Made by a program: the position numbers and the translations under genes. A stretch of 12,135 nucleotides of DNA from positions 1 through 12,135 of the forward strand of contig JBFESZ010000064.1 of NCBI GenBank assembly GCA_041548245.1, given 5' to 3'. Shown one piece after another: positions 6,482-12,135 of this stretch. Below the pieces are notes generated by a model, which ran no database searches, was not told where the DNA came from, and saw nothing but the letters and a program-made list of their open reading frames with translations. Origin of the DNA: Sulfurimonadaceae bacterium. Its GTDB lineage: Bacteria; Campylobacterota; Campylobacteria; Campylobacterales; Sulfurimonadaceae. Each line of letters begins with the position of its first letter. Position 1 is the first letter of the stretch.

Positions 6482-6919
6482 ATGAAAATCATTTTATTAT
6501 TAATGACGATGCTTACATTCATGTTCGCTGCCCAGATTGATGAGTTCGCATCCGAGGTCAACTATCTACGAGACTATAATATGGCTTTAAAAACAGCGAA
6601 AGAACAACATAAGATGGTCATGGTGGTCGTTGTAGGTGACTATTGTCCATGGTGTAAAAAATTTGAGAGGAAGACATTGAAATCTTCTGAAGTAAAAGCA
6701 CAGGTGGATGAGAATTTCATCCCTGTTGTGATCGATAAGTACAAAGATAAAGGGAAGTATCCGGAAGCATATTATGCACCGCTTATTCCAGCGGTCTATT
6801 TTGTGGACCCTTCAAATGAAAAAGTACTTTTGACAACAGTCGCTTATATGAAAAAGGGAGAATATATGGAAAACATGGATGATGCATTGAGTCTTTTTTC
6901 TGAAGGAGAGAAGAGATGA
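6482..6919 (+). CDS. Exported thioredoxin-fold protein (CPWC; SoxW/thioredoxin-like)
   Basis: Sec signal peptide, ALKTAKEQHKMVMVVVVGDYCPWCKKF, cis-Pro loop LIPAVYFVD. TATAAT at 6452-6457 and SD AAGGA at 6472-6476. Confidence 0.88.
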   Translation: MKIILLLMTMLTFMFAAQIDEFASEVNYLRDYNMALKTAKEQHKMVMVVVVGDYCPWCKKFERKTLKSSEVKAQVDENFIPVVIDKYKDKGKYPEAYYAPLIPAVYFVDPSNEKVLLTTVAYMKKGEYMENMDDALSLFSEGEKR

Positions 6920-7356
6920 AAAAACTTTTTTTGTTAGCACTCCTATCTGCTCAACTCTTCTCACAGTCTTACTTTACCCTTGACAATGTTCGTTCACTTA
7001 ATCTTTATTTCGCAAGTGATGCCGAGTTTTTGACACAGGAACAAAAGGAAACTTTGAAAAAGACAGTTCGGAAGAAGCTTGAAAAAGCAGGTTTCGTCTT
7101 TGGAGAAACGGATGCCTATGTCTTTGTCGTTAAAATCGAATCTATCGGTATAGAAGAGTCTCAGGCCATTGACATTCAGGTCAAACTGGGTGAAGAGGTG
7201 ATTACGAAACGCAAAGACAATATCGAGACTTTCGCATACACTTATTTGGAACATAAGCTTGTAGAGGGTTATGATCCGTATGAAGATACTCGTGAAGCTC
7301 TTAGTTCTTTAGTTGATGGGTTCATTAATGCGCACAAAGATGACAACGAAGAATAA
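6916..7356 (+). CDS. Exported hypothetical protein, translationally coupled to the thioredoxin-fold gene
   Basis: ATGA start/stop overlap at 6916-6919; signal peptide MKKLFLLALLSAQLFS. Confidence 0.8.
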   Translation: MKKLFLLALLSAQLFSQSYFTLDNVRSLNLYFASDAEFLTQEQKETLKKTVRKKLEKAGFVFGETDAYVFVVKIESIGIEESQAIDIQVKLGEEVITKRKDNIETFAYTYLEHKLVEGYDPYEDTREALSSLVDGFINAHKDDNEE

Positions 7357-7412
7357 AGTAAAGTTAAACAGAACCTATTAAGCGATAGATTTAGTTAGAC
7401 TTGATGTTTACT

Positions 7413-7421
7413 TGATATACT
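7413..7421 (+). promoter_or_regulatory. Extended -10 (TGaTATACT) for the SOR-like gene
   Basis: TGATATACT, then SD AAGGA at 7441-7445 and ATG 7451. Confidence 0.55.
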
Positions 7422-7450
7422 TTCCGTAAACCTATTATAAAAGGAAGAGG

Positions 7451-7861
7451 ATGAAAAACCGTAGAGAATTTATTAAGTCATCATTGGTCGCTTCAACAGG
7501 CTTGCTCGCAGCGACTGCAATACCTGCAATCGCCAAAGAGAACAGTGTTAAAAATATTTTTGCGTATTCTGCAGATGAACCGGGCAGATGGGAAGGCAAA
7601 GCAGGCAGTCATGCTCCTGTCGTTACCGTGAATGGAAACAGGGTCACGGTAGAGACTAAGCATGGCATGGCTGAGATGCATTATATTGTCAAGCATACAT
7701 TGGTGACTGCTTCAGGTGAGGTGGTTGGTGAGAAAGTGTTTTTTCCAAAGAAGGATAAACAAGCTATCTCAACATACGAGATCAAGGGTGATCATAAGAA
7801 GCTGTTTGCTTTGAGCTTTTGCAACCTGCATGACCTTTGGGTAAGTGAGTTTAGTCTTTAA
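7451..7861 (+). CDS. Tat-exported 1Fe superoxide reductase / desulfoferrodoxin-family protein
   Basis: Twin-arginine signal NRREFIK...AIA. Iron ligands H(AP), H-x5-H (HGMAEMH) and CxxH (FCNLHDLW). Confidence 0.88.
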   Translation: MKNRREFIKSSLVASTGLLAATAIPAIAKENSVKNIFAYSADEPGRWEGKAGSHAPVVTVNGNRVTVETKHGMAEMHYIVKHTLVTASGEVVGEKVFFPKKDKQAISTYEIKGDHKKLFALSFCNLHDLWVSEFSL

Positions 7862-7869
7862 TCAGTGAG

Positions 7870-7907
7870 GCTATCCCTGCAAGGGGCTCATAGGGATAGC
7901 GCCTTTT
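7870..7907 (+). terminator. Probable intrinsic terminator between convergent genes
   Basis: Inverted repeat GCTATCCCT (7870-7878) / AGGGATAGC (7892-7900), followed by GCCTTTT. Confidence 0.6.
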
Positions 7908-7915
7908 GGTTTAAT

Positions 7916-8338
7916 CTACCACTCTTTTTTTAATTCGGCTTCGTCCAATACATCATAGAAACCTTTCACTTCTCGTCCACCCCAGGTATCATGGAAGACT
8001 CTTCCATTAGACTCTAGAAAATAGTGTCGAGGAACCCCTTTGGTCTGAAACCATCCTGGAATCTTATGTTGGTCTCTTGAGAGGTAGACAAGCACATAAT
8101 CTTTTTTGAGTTTCTCAATGACACCTTGGTCTGAGAGAGTTTTCTCTTTAAACCTCTTACAGAATTTACATTTGTCAGCACCAATAAAGAGGTAAACATC
8201 TTTGTTCTCTTTTTTTGCCTGAACCAAGGCTTTGTCATAGTCATGCAGCCAGTCGAGTTCAGTAGCATAGCCCGAAACCGCCATTGCTAATATTAATGCA
8301 AAAAAATTGATGATGGAAAATCTTTTTATATCGTTCAT
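7916..8338 (-). CDS. Exported thioredoxin-fold protein (CKFC)
   Basis: Signal peptide, LDWLHDYDKALVQAKKENKDVYLFIGADKCKFCKRF, cis-Pro loop GVPRHYFL. Confidence 0.88.
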   Translation of the reverse strand: MNDIKRFSIINFFALILAMAVSGYATELDWLHDYDKALVQAKKENKDVYLFIGADKCKFCKRFKEKTLSDQGVIEKLKKDYVLVYLSRDQHKIPGWFQTKGVPRHYFLESNGRVFHDTWGGREVKGFYDVLDEAELKKEW

Positions 8339-9460: not shown

Positions 9461-10891
9461 ATGCATCAAGAACAAACCTCTTTTTTCACGGGATTTTTTG
9501 AGAGCGGTCACTCTTTTGGAAAAGATGAGATCCTTTTAAAGTTTCAATACCGTGTGATCAATATGGTCTTGTTGGTGATGGGTGTTTTTACTTTTATATT
9601 TGCCATGTTGAGTACGCTCGGCATCGATCCTCTTGGAATCATACAAACGGTTGCAAACTATATCCTGACTTTTGTCTCTTTTGTCATAATCATACGTCTA
9701 AGAGGTCCTAAAAAAAACTATCTTCAAAATGCCTACTTGATGTATGGTGCGGCTATGGCTAATTTTATAACCGCGCTGGTTTTTGTCCCGCATGATGAGT
9801 TTCGGATTATCTGGTTCTATCTGCTTACCTTTGCTGCATATATCACAGGCGGTATACGTGCAGGTAGTATGATTACGGCCTTGTCTATTTTCATTGTACT
9901 TACCACCAATGTGATATATGACCTTAAACTCTCCGAAACAGCGATTATCAGTTCCGTATTGGGTCTGATTATCGCAAGTCTGTTCTTTCGTTCTTATACA
10001 AAGAAGATTATGGATTTTGAGCAAGAGATTATGGCACAACAGCTTCAACTTGCAAAGTTTAATGAGGAGCTTGAAAATAAAGTCACCCAAAAGACAAAAG
10101 AGCTGCAGGATCTTAATGAGTCACTTGAGAGTATTGTGGCCAACAAAGTCGCTAAGATCACTGAACAAGAAAGGCTGATGATCGCACAGTCACGCCTGGC
10201 AACGATGGGTGAGATGCTGAGTATGATCGCCCATCAATGGCGTCAGCCCCTCTCAACGATGACACTTTTGATTACCAAAGAGAGGTTAAAGGCGATGGTG
10301 GAAGGAACTGAGCCAAGCGAGACTGATATGATCCTTGAGAAGATATCAGATATGCTGGTCTATCTTTCTGATACGATCGATGATTTCCAAACTTATTTCA
10401 AGCCGGACAAAGCCACGCAAGAGATAGCTGTGAGTATGCTCATGGAGCGCCTTGAGCATTTCATTGAACCAAGACTTCTTCAGGAAAAAGTGACCTTAGA
10501 TATTAAGCTGCATCAAGATATGAGAATCAATACCTATACGAATGAAGTTATTCAGGCCTTTATCAATATCATCAACAATGCGATCGATGTTCTGGTAGAG
10601 AAGCGTGAGAAAGAACGTCATATCTGGATAAAGGTGGACAGTGCTGATGAGAGTGTCATGATCAGCGTAGAGGACAATGGCGGAGGTATAGATAGCGAGA
10701 TTATTGATAGGATATTTGAACCTTATTTCAGCAAGAAGTCTAAAAATGGGACGGGATTGGGATTGTATATGGCGAAGATGATCATTGAAAAACATATCGG
10801 TGGAACTCTTGATGTTGTCAACACATCAAATGGTGCACATTTCAGCATTGTTTTGCCTGCGAAGACCATACCGATGGTGTATAACGCATAA
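9461..10891 (+). CDS. Membrane-bound sensor histidine kinase (about 6 TM, coiled coil, HisKA + HATPase_c)
   Basis: H-box IAHQWRQPL, N-box NIINNAID, G1 DNGGGI, F-box FEPYF, G2 GTGLGLY. TATAAT at 9424-9429 and SD AGGA at 9452-9455. Confidence 0.95.
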   Translation: MHQEQTSFFTGFFESGHSFGKDEILLKFQYRVINMVLLVMGVFTFIFAMLSTLGIDPLGIIQTVANYILTFVSFVIIIRLRGPKKNYLQNAYLMYGAAMANFITALVFVPHDEFRIIWFYLLTFAAYITGGIRAGSMITALSIFIVLTTNVIYDLKLSETAIISSVLGLIIASLFFRSYTKKIMDFEQEIMAQQLQLAKFNEELENKVTQKTKELQDLNESLESIVANKVAKITEQERLMIAQSRLATMGEMLSMIAHQWRQPLSTMTLLITKERLKAMVEGTEPSETDMILEKISDMLVYLSDTIDDFQTYFKPDKATQEIAVSMLMERLEHFIEPRLLQEKVTLDIKLHQDMRINTYTNEVIQAFINIINNAIDVLVEKREKERHIWIKVDSADESVMISVEDNGGGIDSEIIDRIFEPYFSKKSKNGTGLGLYMAKMIIEKHIGGTLDVVNTSNGAHFSIVLPAKTIPMVYNA

Positions 10892-10945
10892 ATAAAAGAA
10901 ATAGATGGGTTTTATGAGGGATTGTTGATGCTCGGTTGCAGATAA

Positions 10946-10954
10946 TGGTATAAT
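10946..10954 (+). promoter_or_regulatory. Extended -10 (TGgTATAAT) driving the leader ORF and receptor transcript
   Basis: TGGTATAAT, then SD AAAGGGG (10966-10972) and ATG 10978. Confidence 0.65.
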
Positions 10955-10977
10955 TGCGAAAAAAGAAAGGGGCTCGT

Positions 10978-11250
10978 ATGATCAAGAAAAAATATCGACT
11001 GTTCATACTTGCTCTTGTATTTGCCGGGACACTTCTTTCCAGTTTCCATTATCATGATGATATCTATGTGGATGATGACTGTCCAGTCTGTGTCATTCAG
11101 CATGTCTTCGCCATTGCGGATATCCCTGAAACTCTCAGTTTGGAAGAGCTGGCTCTTTTTATCCTGATCCCTCTTTTAGCAGGGGAGACTTATTTCTCGT
11201 TAAAGCTCATAAACAGCTGTCCTTCCCGCGCACCTCCCTCTTTTTCCTAA
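10978..11250 (+). CDS. DUF2946/CruR-like regulatory leader protein with HxH, CxxC and C-terminal RAPP arrest motif (90 aa)
   Basis: Basic N-terminus plus hydrophobic helix (res 1-23), H24-Y-H26, C35-P-V-C38, R84-A-P-P87, three residues before the stop. SD and -10 positions favour ATG 10978 over TTG 10954. Confidence 0.8.
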   Translation: MIKKKYRLFILALVFAGTLLSSFHYHDDIYVDDDCPVCVIQHVFAIADIPETLSLEELALFILIPLLAGETYFSLKLINSCPSRAPPSFS

Positions 11251-11290
11251 CTTTAATCAACCAAACAATTATTATCATTATTAGGAAAAA
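11241..11290 (+). promoter_or_regulatory. Anti-SD/SD hairpin (translational attenuator) of the downstream receptor gene
   Basis: TTTTTCCTAA (11241-11250) is the exact reverse complement of TTAGGAAAAA (11281-11290), which contains the SD AGGA of ATG 11293. Confidence 0.7.
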
Positions 11291-11292
11291 AC

Positions 11293-12135
11293 ATGAAAAA
11301 ATTTCTTTATCTAGCTCTGTATGCTAGTACACTACTTTATGCAGATGCACCTGCACTAAAACCTATGCAAGAGCGTACATTTGTACAGTCTCAATATATG
11401 CCTGATATCTCCTTGATAGCAGATCTTTCAATGGTCTCTCGCAATAAAGAACAGGATGAACTTCCAGCTTACAGTATTCCAGGTGTGAGTGAAGCATTTT
11501 TCGGCAGTGGAGATAACGAGCATTCTCACGGTACCTATAATGCAGAAAACGGGTTTAATCTTAATTATGCCGAACTTGTCATGTCATCAAGTGTAGACCC
11601 TTTTCTCAGTTTTGATGCCGTTTTTCATTTTGCACAAGAGGGTGTGGATATTGAAGAGGCCTACTTTACGACGACTGCTCTCGGGCATGGAGTGAGGATT
11701 CGCGGCGGGAAGTTCTTAAGCGGTTTTGGCAGGCATAATGCCCAACACCATCATATATGGGACTTCAGTGACGCGCCGCTGATCTATCAAGGGTTTCTGG
11801 GCGGGGCTTTGAACGAAAAAGGTCTGCAGTTTCAATATACGCCTGCATTGTCTGAATATGTGATGTTGGGAGCTGAGGTCTTACAAGGCGAGAATGAAAG
11901 TACATTCGGCAATAGGACACAAACGTTTGAGAACAATGATACGCTTAAAGGAGCAGAAGCCCCGTCGATGTTTGTCGCTTATGCCAAGACATCTTTTGAT
12001 ATTGGTGAAACAACAGTGATCCCGGGTCTCGCCTATGTCTATGGCGAGACAAGAAGTTATCATTTGCATGAAGGTGTTGAAGAAGCGTTTAGCGGAGTCA
12101 GTTGGATATACAATGCGGAACTGACAGTAAAGCAC
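11293..12135 (+). CDS. His-rich outer-membrane beta-barrel receptor/porin, probably for metal uptake (resembles proteins annotated 'zinc-regulated TonB-dependent outer membrane receptor'); 3'-truncated, absent from the ORF track
   Basis: Own translation, open for 281 codons to the window end: MKKFLYLALYASTLLYA|DAPALK...PDISLIAD...EHSHGTYNAENGFNLNYAELVMSSSVDPF...DIEEAYFTT...RGGKFLSGFGRHNAQHHHIWDFSDAPLIY...NEKGLQFQY...LGAEVLQGENE...YHLHEG. Confidence 0.85.
   Translation, partial: MKKFLYLALYASTLLYADAPALKPMQERTFVQSQYMPDISLIADLSMVSRNKEQDELPAYSIPGVSEAFFGSGDNEHSHGTYNAENGFNLNYAELVMSSSVDPFLSFDAVFHFAQEGVDIEEAYFTTTALGHGVRIRGGKFLSGFGRHNAQHHHIWDFSDAPLIYQGFLGGALNEKGLQFQYTPALSEYVMLGAEVLQGENESTFGNRTQTFENNDTLKGAEAPSMFVAYAKTSFDIGETTVIPGLAYVYGETRSYHLHEGVEEAFSGVSWIYNAELTVKH

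Follow-up and report, generated by a model that had tools for sequence, protein, structure and literature searches.

In the secM-secA and mifM-yidC2 systems, the ribosome stalls close to the C-terminal end of a leader that is exported or inserted into the membrane, and a hairpin hiding the Shine-Dalgarno (SD) sequence of the downstream gene is thereby opened. SecM and MifM monitor the machinery for secretion or insertion whose expression they control, and are released by its pulling force. To our knowledge, CruR and CutF are the only metal-sensing arrest leaders to have been studied, both of them being copper-responsive. Here we describe a short leader open reading frame (ORF) of a Sulfurimonadaceae bacterium (order Campylobacterales) that ends close to an Arg-Ala-Pro-Pro (RAPP) motif and whose last codons can pair with the SD of the following porin-like gene. 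The window, that is, the whole stretch of DNA that was analysed, is the complete contig JBFESZ010000064.1 (GenBank assembly GCA_041548245.1) of 12,135 nucleotides (nt), with the leader and the start of the porin gene at its 3′ end. Leader and hairpin together are most likely a variant of the CruR and CutF metal switches, with the hairpin probably acting as the translational output of a metal-sensing leader of the CruR/CutF type.

CruR (Bp2923 of Bordetella pertussis, a DUF2946 protein encoded upstream of the TonB-dependent transporter BfrG) is, like the leader described here, the product of a small first gene of a metal-uptake operon and is exported (PMC9426467). Its hallmarks are an export signal, a CXXC motif, a 45-residue spacing (within 1-2 residues) and a RAPP motif three residues from the C terminus (PMC9426467). 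CruR arrests translation in the PURE system, where toeprinting finds the P and A sites of the ribosome occupied by the two Pro codons of CruR (PMC12992588), while RAPP has been shown to arrest both E. coli and B. subtilis ribosomes and resembles SecM's RAG/P motif (PMC10951233). RAPP is avoided proteome-wide (PMC12992588), and a survey of small RAPP and RGPP upstream ORFs (uORFs) describes C-terminal RAPP in small exported proteins encoded upstream of outer-membrane or metal genes, as is the case here (PMC12992588). CutF of the CutF-cutO system of Rhodobacter capsulatus is likewise an exported metal sensor of the DUF2946 type, in which a C-terminal stall melts a stem-loop that shields the SD (PMC9973294; bioRxiv 10.1101/2025.02.05.636593), the anti-SD role of this stem-loop having been proved by mutation (PMC9973294).

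The elements that make up the proposed switch lie at the 3′ end of the window, all on the forward (+) strand.

10978 to 11250, +: leader ORF of 90 amino acids plus stop, a divergent CruR/CutF-like (DUF2946) regulatory uORF, assigned from its homologues and their link to PF11162.
11227 to 11238, +: RAPP codons, the putative arrest motif, with ribosomal sites assigned by analogy with ApdA/ApdP and CruR (PMC10951233, PMC12992588).
11241 to 11250, +: 5′ arm (anti-SD), the last 7 coding bases of the leader plus its UAA stop, spanning +9 to +18 when counted from the predicted P-site codon.
11251 to 11280, +: loop of 30 nt, G-free and A-rich, containing TATTATCAT.
11281 to 11290, +: 3′ arm, inside which lies the porin gene's SD, AGGA (11283-11286).
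11293 to 12135, +: start of the putatively regulated gene, encoding a porin-like outer-membrane beta-barrel of about 422 amino acids and continuing on another contig.

An earlier reading of the DNA letters (the sequence-only reading) had claimed that the end of the leader pairs 10/10 with a segment containing the downstream SD and that the pairing arm begins 2 nt after the last Pro codon. Both claims are borne out, with TTTTTCCTAA (11241-11250) being the exact reverse complement of TTAGGAAAAA (11281-11290) at all ten positions and the frame of the leader placing Arg at 11227-29, Ala at 11230-32, the two Pro codons at 11233-35 and 11236-38, Ser-Phe-Ser at 11239-47 and the stop codon at 11248-50. 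From this frame the 5′ arm consists of the final 7 coding bases and the UAA stop. The SD at 11283-86 lies inside the 3′ arm with the ATG at 11293 following 6 nt further on, and the spacer between leader and porin gene is 42 nt long and AT-rich. A fold of the region, proposed along with the pairing, returned the arm-to-arm hairpin, though a weak one, as the minimum free energy (MFE) structure, and this was so in both contexts folded with RNAfold: 111 nt (-8.8 kcal/mol, z -1.17, 25 of 200 shuffles equally good) and 65 nt (-6.5 kcal/mol, z -1.80, 12 of 200 shuffles equally good). The extension of the stem by TAAT (11254-11257) and ATTA (11277-11280), which had also been suggested, is present in the sequence but falls outside the MFE structure at 37°C (-6.1 versus -6.5 kcal/mol), being marginally favoured only at or below 25°C. 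When the 5′ window was dinucleotide-shuffled 100 times, no shuffle equalled the native sequence in duplex energy with the SD window (z -2.88). At the level of this single locus the hairpin thus forms in the folding model but is weak and not significant alone, and the pairing is judged to be above chance because it is conserved and covaries in related loci. A search of Rfam with 10850-11400 returned no family at E up to 1.

Conservation was assessed in a first set of 30 loci to which 40 more divergent ones were added, giving, after one identical locus and one lacking downstream DNA were dropped, 68 non-identical loci with a downstream gene. A helix of at least 6 bp that shares 3 nt or more with the SD and begins no later than +16 (taking the first of the two leader Pro codons as +1, as set out below) was found in 49 of the 68, as compared with 14.4 ± 3.0 loci when the 5′ regions were shuffled (maximum 21, 40 runs) and 30.3 ± 4.1 when they were swapped with those from other loci (maximum 41). 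The best ungapped helix had a median length of 8 bp and overlapped the SD by at least 3 nt in 56/68 loci. Mean duplex energy was -9.61 kcal/mol for cognate pairs, against -6.81 when the 5′ windows were shuffled and -7.28 when the arms were non-cognate, with the cognate 3′ arm ranking within the best tenth in 29/68 loci. When the mRNA from RAPP to the start codon was folded, the end of the leader paired with the SD in most loci, even in those with 115-213 nt inserted.

The two arms also covary, as had been put forward for checking in related genomes. In a MAFFT alignment of 25 loci that was not fitted to the structure 68.7% of cells pair versus 62.0 ± 1.3% in shuffles (0/500), the register slid by +1 being also high at 63.3%. 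A covariance-model alignment of all 68 loci, which leans towards the structure, gave 69.4% pairing cells versus 59.3 ± 0.9% in shuffles, 115 cells changed on both sides versus 55.3 ± 5.5, and a covariation score of 0.273 versus 0.151 that 0/500 shuffles reached, with slid registers at 38-54% pairing. These shuffle counts overstate significance because the related sequences are not independent; the arm pairs amount to about a dozen sequence types across several genera and four families of the order. The compensatory changes include positions outside the coding sequence and the stop codon itself. Pairing at the last coding base is by C-G in 24 loci, by U-A in 18 and by A-U in 8, with 14 unpaired, while UAA-stop loci carry UUA directly ahead of the SD in 30 cases and UCA in 2, and UGA-stop loci carry UCA in 3 cases and UUA in 1. 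Five loci from other families of the order were inspected, one of which has a 14-bp UGA/UCA helix and another a 10-bp UGA/UCA helix, and in two the arm sits on the Arg-Ser-Pro codons. As judged by this comparison, the helix between leader end and SD is conserved, its arms covary, and compensatory changes occur across four families of the order.

The codons behind the arrest motif point in the same direction. In 50 of 50 loci the tail ends on a UCN codon for Ser (UCC in 25), while Ser codons elsewhere in the same loci are AGY in 945 of 2324 cases (41%), and the 9 nt of the tail are 83% pyrimidine and 3% G. Going by codon choice, the tail is constrained at the nucleotide level.

The position of the helix relative to RAPP is equally regular. 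With 11233 taken as +1 (predicted P-site codon), the tail codons occupy +7 to +15 and the stop +16 to +18, and the 5′ arm, which in most members of the family has its first base at +8 to +12, always falls between about +8 and +18. The mRNA held by a bacterial ribosome extends to about +15, here 11247, so that 7 of the 10 arm bases at +9 to +18 would lie inside an arrested ribosome; the claim that a stalled ribosome would mask most of the arm agrees with this predicted footprint. Accessibility of the SD was calculated with a local partition-function model in which the mRNA up to +15 was removed to mimic the stalled ribosome. On such removal the modelled unpaired probability of the SD rose from 0.00 to 0.46 at this locus and from a median of 0.06 to 0.51 over the loci, with a rise of at least 0.3 in 35 of 67 loci and a fall in 2. 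The sequence-only reading of the locus as a switch, on when the ribosome stalls and off when it is released, gains support from this comparative evidence, namely the conserved helix, the constraint on the tail, the geometry, the modelled accessibility and the precedent of CutF. Its analogy with secM-secA and mifM-yidC2 holds in that arrest would open a hairpin masking an SD, but the closest precedents are CruR and CutF.

On this basis the following sequence of events can be proposed. As the leader is made, its membrane anchor and a His-x-His...CxxC patch would emerge first. A ribosome arrested at RAPP would then cover most of the anti-SD arm, 7 bases out of 10, and the SD at 11283-86 would stay single-stranded, such that the porin is translated, with ZnuA and ZnuB, encoded behind it, following by coupling or through protection from polarity. 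Once arrest is released the three tail codons would be finished, termination would occur, the arm would re-pair with the SD and initiation would drop. Following the logic of CruR, metal binding to the nascent His/Cys patch would release the arrest and so turn uptake off, this sign being favoured because the operon imports metal. While the pairing with its conservation, covariation and placement relative to RAPP, the membership of the leader in its family and the genes of the operon are observed, we infer that ribosomes of this bacterium arrest at RAPP, that a metal modulates the arrest, in which direction it does so and which metal it is.

The remaining features of the leader region, also on the forward strand, are these.

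10925 to 10954, +: promoter-like site of the leader, TTGATG, 18 nt and a TG-extended TATAAT (10949-10954), a consensus match only (10/12, TG present).
10966 to 10972, +: leader SD AAAGGGG, 5 nt ahead of the ATG, found by reading the sequence.
10993 to 11046, +: hydrophobic N-terminal segment (about residues 6-23) after a Lys-rich start, a putative signal anchor or export signal, found by inspection.
11047 to 11055, +: His-x-His (H24, H26), invariant in the 29-sequence alignment.
11080 to 11091, +: CPVC (C35, C38), a CxxC metal-binding motif 45 residues ahead of RAPP.

Read from its N terminus, the leader protein has a start rich in Lys, then a hydrophobic segment, HYHDD and CPVC, and after a variable stretch it ends in SRAPPSFS. 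Although the protein itself gave no Pfam or NCBIfam match, it belongs to a sizeable family. A homologue is present in 76 of 201 genomes of the same taxonomic family (13 of 23 genera), and a profile search with the leader family found 243 database proteins, those with an organism name being 'hypothetical proteins' of Sulfurimonas and none carrying a Pfam domain. In an alignment of 29 members H24, H26, C35, C38, A85, P86 and P87 are invariant and R84 is conserved in at least 90%, with a variable linker; by inspection, all 29 have the Lys-rich start and a hydrophobic stretch of about 18 residues. In all 30 loci of the first set 44-46 residues separate CxxC from RAPP and 3 residues follow as the tail, the motif being RAPP in 29 and NAPP in 1. 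Over all 68 loci the Cys motif takes the form CxxC 59 times and CxxY 9 times, is preceded within 16 residues by 2-6 His in every locus, and lies 42-46 residues from the arrest motif in every locus; the arrest motif is RAPP in 56, RSPP in 8, NAPP in 2, QAPP in 1 and RDPP in 1, with a tail of 3 residues in 50 loci and 2 in 18. RAPP occurs once in the 2077 ORFs of at least 80 amino acids of this genome, namely in this leader, and RGPP and RSPP do not occur among them, the single RAPP fitting the reported proteome-wide avoidance (PMC12992588). On its sequence the leader matches the published architecture of CruR and also fits the wider CutF-like group.

The family can be linked to PF11162 (DUF2946), which was the top Pfam family for 20 of the 29 members (best E 6.2e-4). 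The hits are colinear in 14 of 16 members inspected, running from profile position 49-54 to 117/117 and ending at RAPP, and score 13.0-20.3 bits versus the curated cut-off of 23.7. One relative from another family of the order reaches 24.5 bits, above the cut-off, and matches the leader-family profile at E 3e-23. The sequence link to PF11162 is weak but consistent.

Several observations concern the leaders more widely. RSPP leaders (L040, L044, L046, L050, L058, L059, L067) mostly precede TonB-dependent receptors with Plug and barrel domains, a kind of neighbour that some paralogues of the present leader share with CruR, and several of the CxxY leaders (L039, L057, L061, L062, L072) precede genes for lipoprotein-like proteins of about 300 amino acids. 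Within the roughly 110 nt upstream of each leader, a TGnTATAAT box is present in most related loci. In many genera (L018, L020, L021, L023, L027, L029, L031, L042 and others) the leader ATG is 6-8 nt after this box and has no SD, for which reason their leader mRNAs look leaderless; the genus of this contig differs in that a 23-nt stretch with an SD separates the box from the ATG. Within the leader ORF at 11160-11168 is a second anti-SD-like segment, TATCCTGAT, and at 11168-11185 a terminator-like hairpin, TCCCTCTTTTAGCAGGGG, with a T-rich tail (a consensus match only). Upstream of the leader (6482-8338, 9461-10891) are two thioredoxin-like genes, a gene with a desulfoferrodoxin domain and a membrane histidine kinase gene that ends 86 nt ahead of the leader, no response regulator being seen adjoining the kinase.

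The porin gene is continued on a second contig of the assembly, with an overlap of 141 nt, and is followed by a gene for a ZnuA-type binding protein (PF01297, E 1.8e-43) and then by one for an ABC-3 permease, a ZnuB homologue. It probably heads a zinc-uptake operon. When the downstream context was extended in 20 related loci the order outer-membrane protein, ZnuA, ABC-3 permease was found in 15, with one locus having only the ABC-3 permease in its ORF calls and four having a lone outer-membrane protein or TonB-dependent receptor. No ZnuC ATPase gene was seen in any of the 15 porin-ZnuA-ZnuB loci, and no copper-homeostasis family was found among the 60 of 104 downstream ORFs scanned in the 20 sampled loci. 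The ZnuA protein is nearest to Synechocystis ZnuA (1PQ4/2OV1, E ~1e-21), with the DPH, NPH and FH motifs aligning, which we take to be zinc ligands. The sequence-only reading had called the porin gene a receptor and in this it was mistaken. The porin fragment matched no Pfam or NCBIfam family, but a model predicted from 19 homologues is a large beta-barrel (predicted local distance difference test, pLDDT, 76.3; predicted template modelling score, pTM, 0.76) with top Foldseek matches to C. jejuni MOMP (E 2e-11) and then chitoporin, OmpT and OprP. A TonB-dependent receptor was rejected, the protein being without a Plug domain and its fold matching porins; look-alike atlas clusters carry the automatic names 'TonB-dependent' or 'zinc-regulated' despite lacking the plug. 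Several His residues are invariant in the porin homologues (H116, H156, H158, H427 and H430 in the numbering of the L005 protein).

A motif in the loop recurs beyond this locus, ATTATCA being present in 13 of 68 intergenic spacers versus 1.4 expected. Its wider form is A(A/C)(C/T)ATTAT(C/T)A, which is also seen in other families of the order. It could act as an operator, as a ribosome standby site or as an RNA motif. A Fur-type operator was among the readings considered, and an internal promoter was set aside, the motif being without the TGnTATAAT form of the family's own promoters.

Compared with the described systems, the locus combines features of several. In CruR a 162-nt GC-rich spacer and Rho are involved (PMC9426467), whereas here the spacer is 42 nt and AT-rich and the SD pairs with the last codons of the leader. 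The operon here differs from that of CruR in being porin-ZnuA-ZnuB, the scanned downstream ORFs of 20 sampled loci containing no copper genes, the CxxC is preceded by an invariant His-x-His, and the clade, Campylobacterales, is outside the range listed for CruR homologues. CutF has a CxxxC motif and a Pro-rich (PPP) tail instead of CxxC and RAPP, and its stall is prolonged by copper to induce a detoxifying oxidase, whereas the genes here import metal (PMC9973294); the anti-SD here is made of the leader's own last codons and stop codon, in which it also differs from CutF. In contrast to SecM, MifM and VemP, the downstream genes encode a porin and a metal ABC importer, not localisation machinery, and the leader has a metal-binding patch. 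In the available part of the RAPP/RGPP survey no SD-masking hairpin, ZnuA/ZnuB context or analysis of this clade is reported (PMC12992588).

A number of points weigh against a switch operated by RAPP arrest and the hairpin. The hairpin is AU-rich and weak (-6.5 kcal/mol; z -1.2 to -1.8), its loop being 30 nt long, and 7 of 36 same-strand gene pairs of the same genome, a crude background limited to these 36, reach an equal duplex energy. Nineteen of the 68 loci lack a helix under the joint definition and only 33 beat 95% of their own shuffles (at most 5 in 100 as good). In a 190-nt fold that includes 90 nt of upstream leader and has the arm masked, the SD re-pairs with 11160-11168 and there is little de-repression, so that the predicted opening depends on context. 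In one out-of-family relative (L103) the tail has 12 residues, the spacer measures 19 nt and no hairpin is present. On the side of the peptide, the residues preceding RAPP vary and Arg is missing in 4/68 loci, the data on RAPP arrest come from ribosomes outside this phylum, and the leader protein of this contig has no PF11162 hit even at E 10, a search of its own genome finding none. In addition the only CruR studied works by Rho-dependent termination and not by SD masking (PMC9426467).

There are four other explanations. Masking of an SD by the end of the upstream cistron is a classical arrangement, and the locus could be one of plain translational coupling, in which any ribosome reading the end of the leader unmasks the SD with no regulated or prolonged arrest, RAPP being used otherwise or merely slowing the ribosome. 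A terminating ribosome too would cover the arm, and the helix is weak enough for transient opening, but coupling leaves unexplained why an arrest motif is fixed 2-3 codons before the stop in 68/68 loci when RAPP occurs in 1 of 2077 ORFs, why it is spaced 42-46 residues from a metal-binding patch, and why CruR needs RAPP for downstream expression (PMC9426467), and we regard it as fairly unlikely. Alternatively Rho-dependent termination could be the main output, as in Bordetella CruR, with the stalled ribosome blocking the loading of Rho on the G-poor spacer and the hairpin being secondary, for instance by turning untranslated porin mRNA into a target of Rho. This is the mechanism of CruR (PMC9426467), a gene for Rho is present in the genome, spacers of up to 70 nt are G-poor, with 6.9% G against 14.5% C, which is what sites of Rho loading would be expected to show, and the porin mRNA would become subject to polarity when its SD is masked, silencing ZnuA and ZnuB as well. 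Set against this are the short, AT-rich spacer (the 162-nt GC-rich one being that of B. pertussis) and covariation that is aimed at the SD, 56/68 best helices overlapping it by at least 3 nt, which together make Rho an unlikely main output. Coupling and Rho polarity are nonetheless compatible with the hairpin, Rho termination and SD masking not being exclusive.

The sign of control could also be that of CutF, with metal binding to the exported nascent chain prolonging the stall and switching the operon on. Copper enhances CutF stalling and opens the SD-shielding stem-loop (PMC9973294), and the leader here has a putative export signal directly followed by the metal patch. Such a sign is quite improbable given that the regulated genes form an uptake set of porin, ZnuA and ZnuB permease, whose induction by the imported metal would be positive feedback, and that the motif is the strong RAPP of CruR and not the Pro-rich tail of CutF. 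It is very improbable that the complementarity has no role in switching, being a by-product of a pyrimidine-rich tail and a purine-rich SD or serving mRNA stability or processing. In its favour non-cognate 5′ regions give a helix of the defined kind in about 30/68 loci and the 7 of 36 background gene pairs pair equally well, yet cognate regions beat non-cognate ones (49 versus 30.3 ± 4.1, maximum 41), compensatory changes occur in non-coding bases and in the stop codon, and the terminal Ser is UCN in 50/50 loci against 41% AGY elsewhere. The hairpin as translational output of a metal-sensing leader stays the probable account.

The metal sensed may be zinc, a serious candidate in view of the constant ZnuA/ZnuB context and of the invariant His-x-His...CxxC patch. 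Tentatively, the leader could be a zinc-sensing version of CruR, in which metal-driven folding of a Cys2His2-type Zn site releases the arrest and the hairpin shuts off the porin-ZnuA-ZnuB importer. The His-x-His...Cys-x-x-Cys site would then lie just outside the exit tunnel, 45 residues from the point of arrest at RAPP. Zinc fingers have reportedly been used in engineered zinc-finger/SecM force-sensor experiments, and a zinc-sensing leader would, if true, be a natural counterpart of these sensors. No literature was found linking RAPP leaders with zinc or ZnuA, or Sulfurimonas with arrest peptides or DUF2946, though supplementary lists of CruR and CutF homologues might include the clade, and no zinc riboswitch or leader-peptide sensor is described in the available portions of the CruR, CutF and RAPP literature. 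If true, the leader would be the first zinc-responsive cis-acting translational regulator.

Neither the clade nor the porin-ZnuA-ZnuB context was found described in the available CruR, CutF and RAPP literature, and the clade would combine the RAPP arrest of CruR with a CutF-style SD mask made from the leader's own last codons. The dozens of natural compensatory variants form a ready-made mutational series. The device may sense zinc, as is suggested by its constant linkage with a His-lined porin and a ZnuA/ZnuB importer, and the analysis gives a name and a likely function to a family of 'hypothetical proteins' missed by Pfam in Sulfurimonas-type bacteria.

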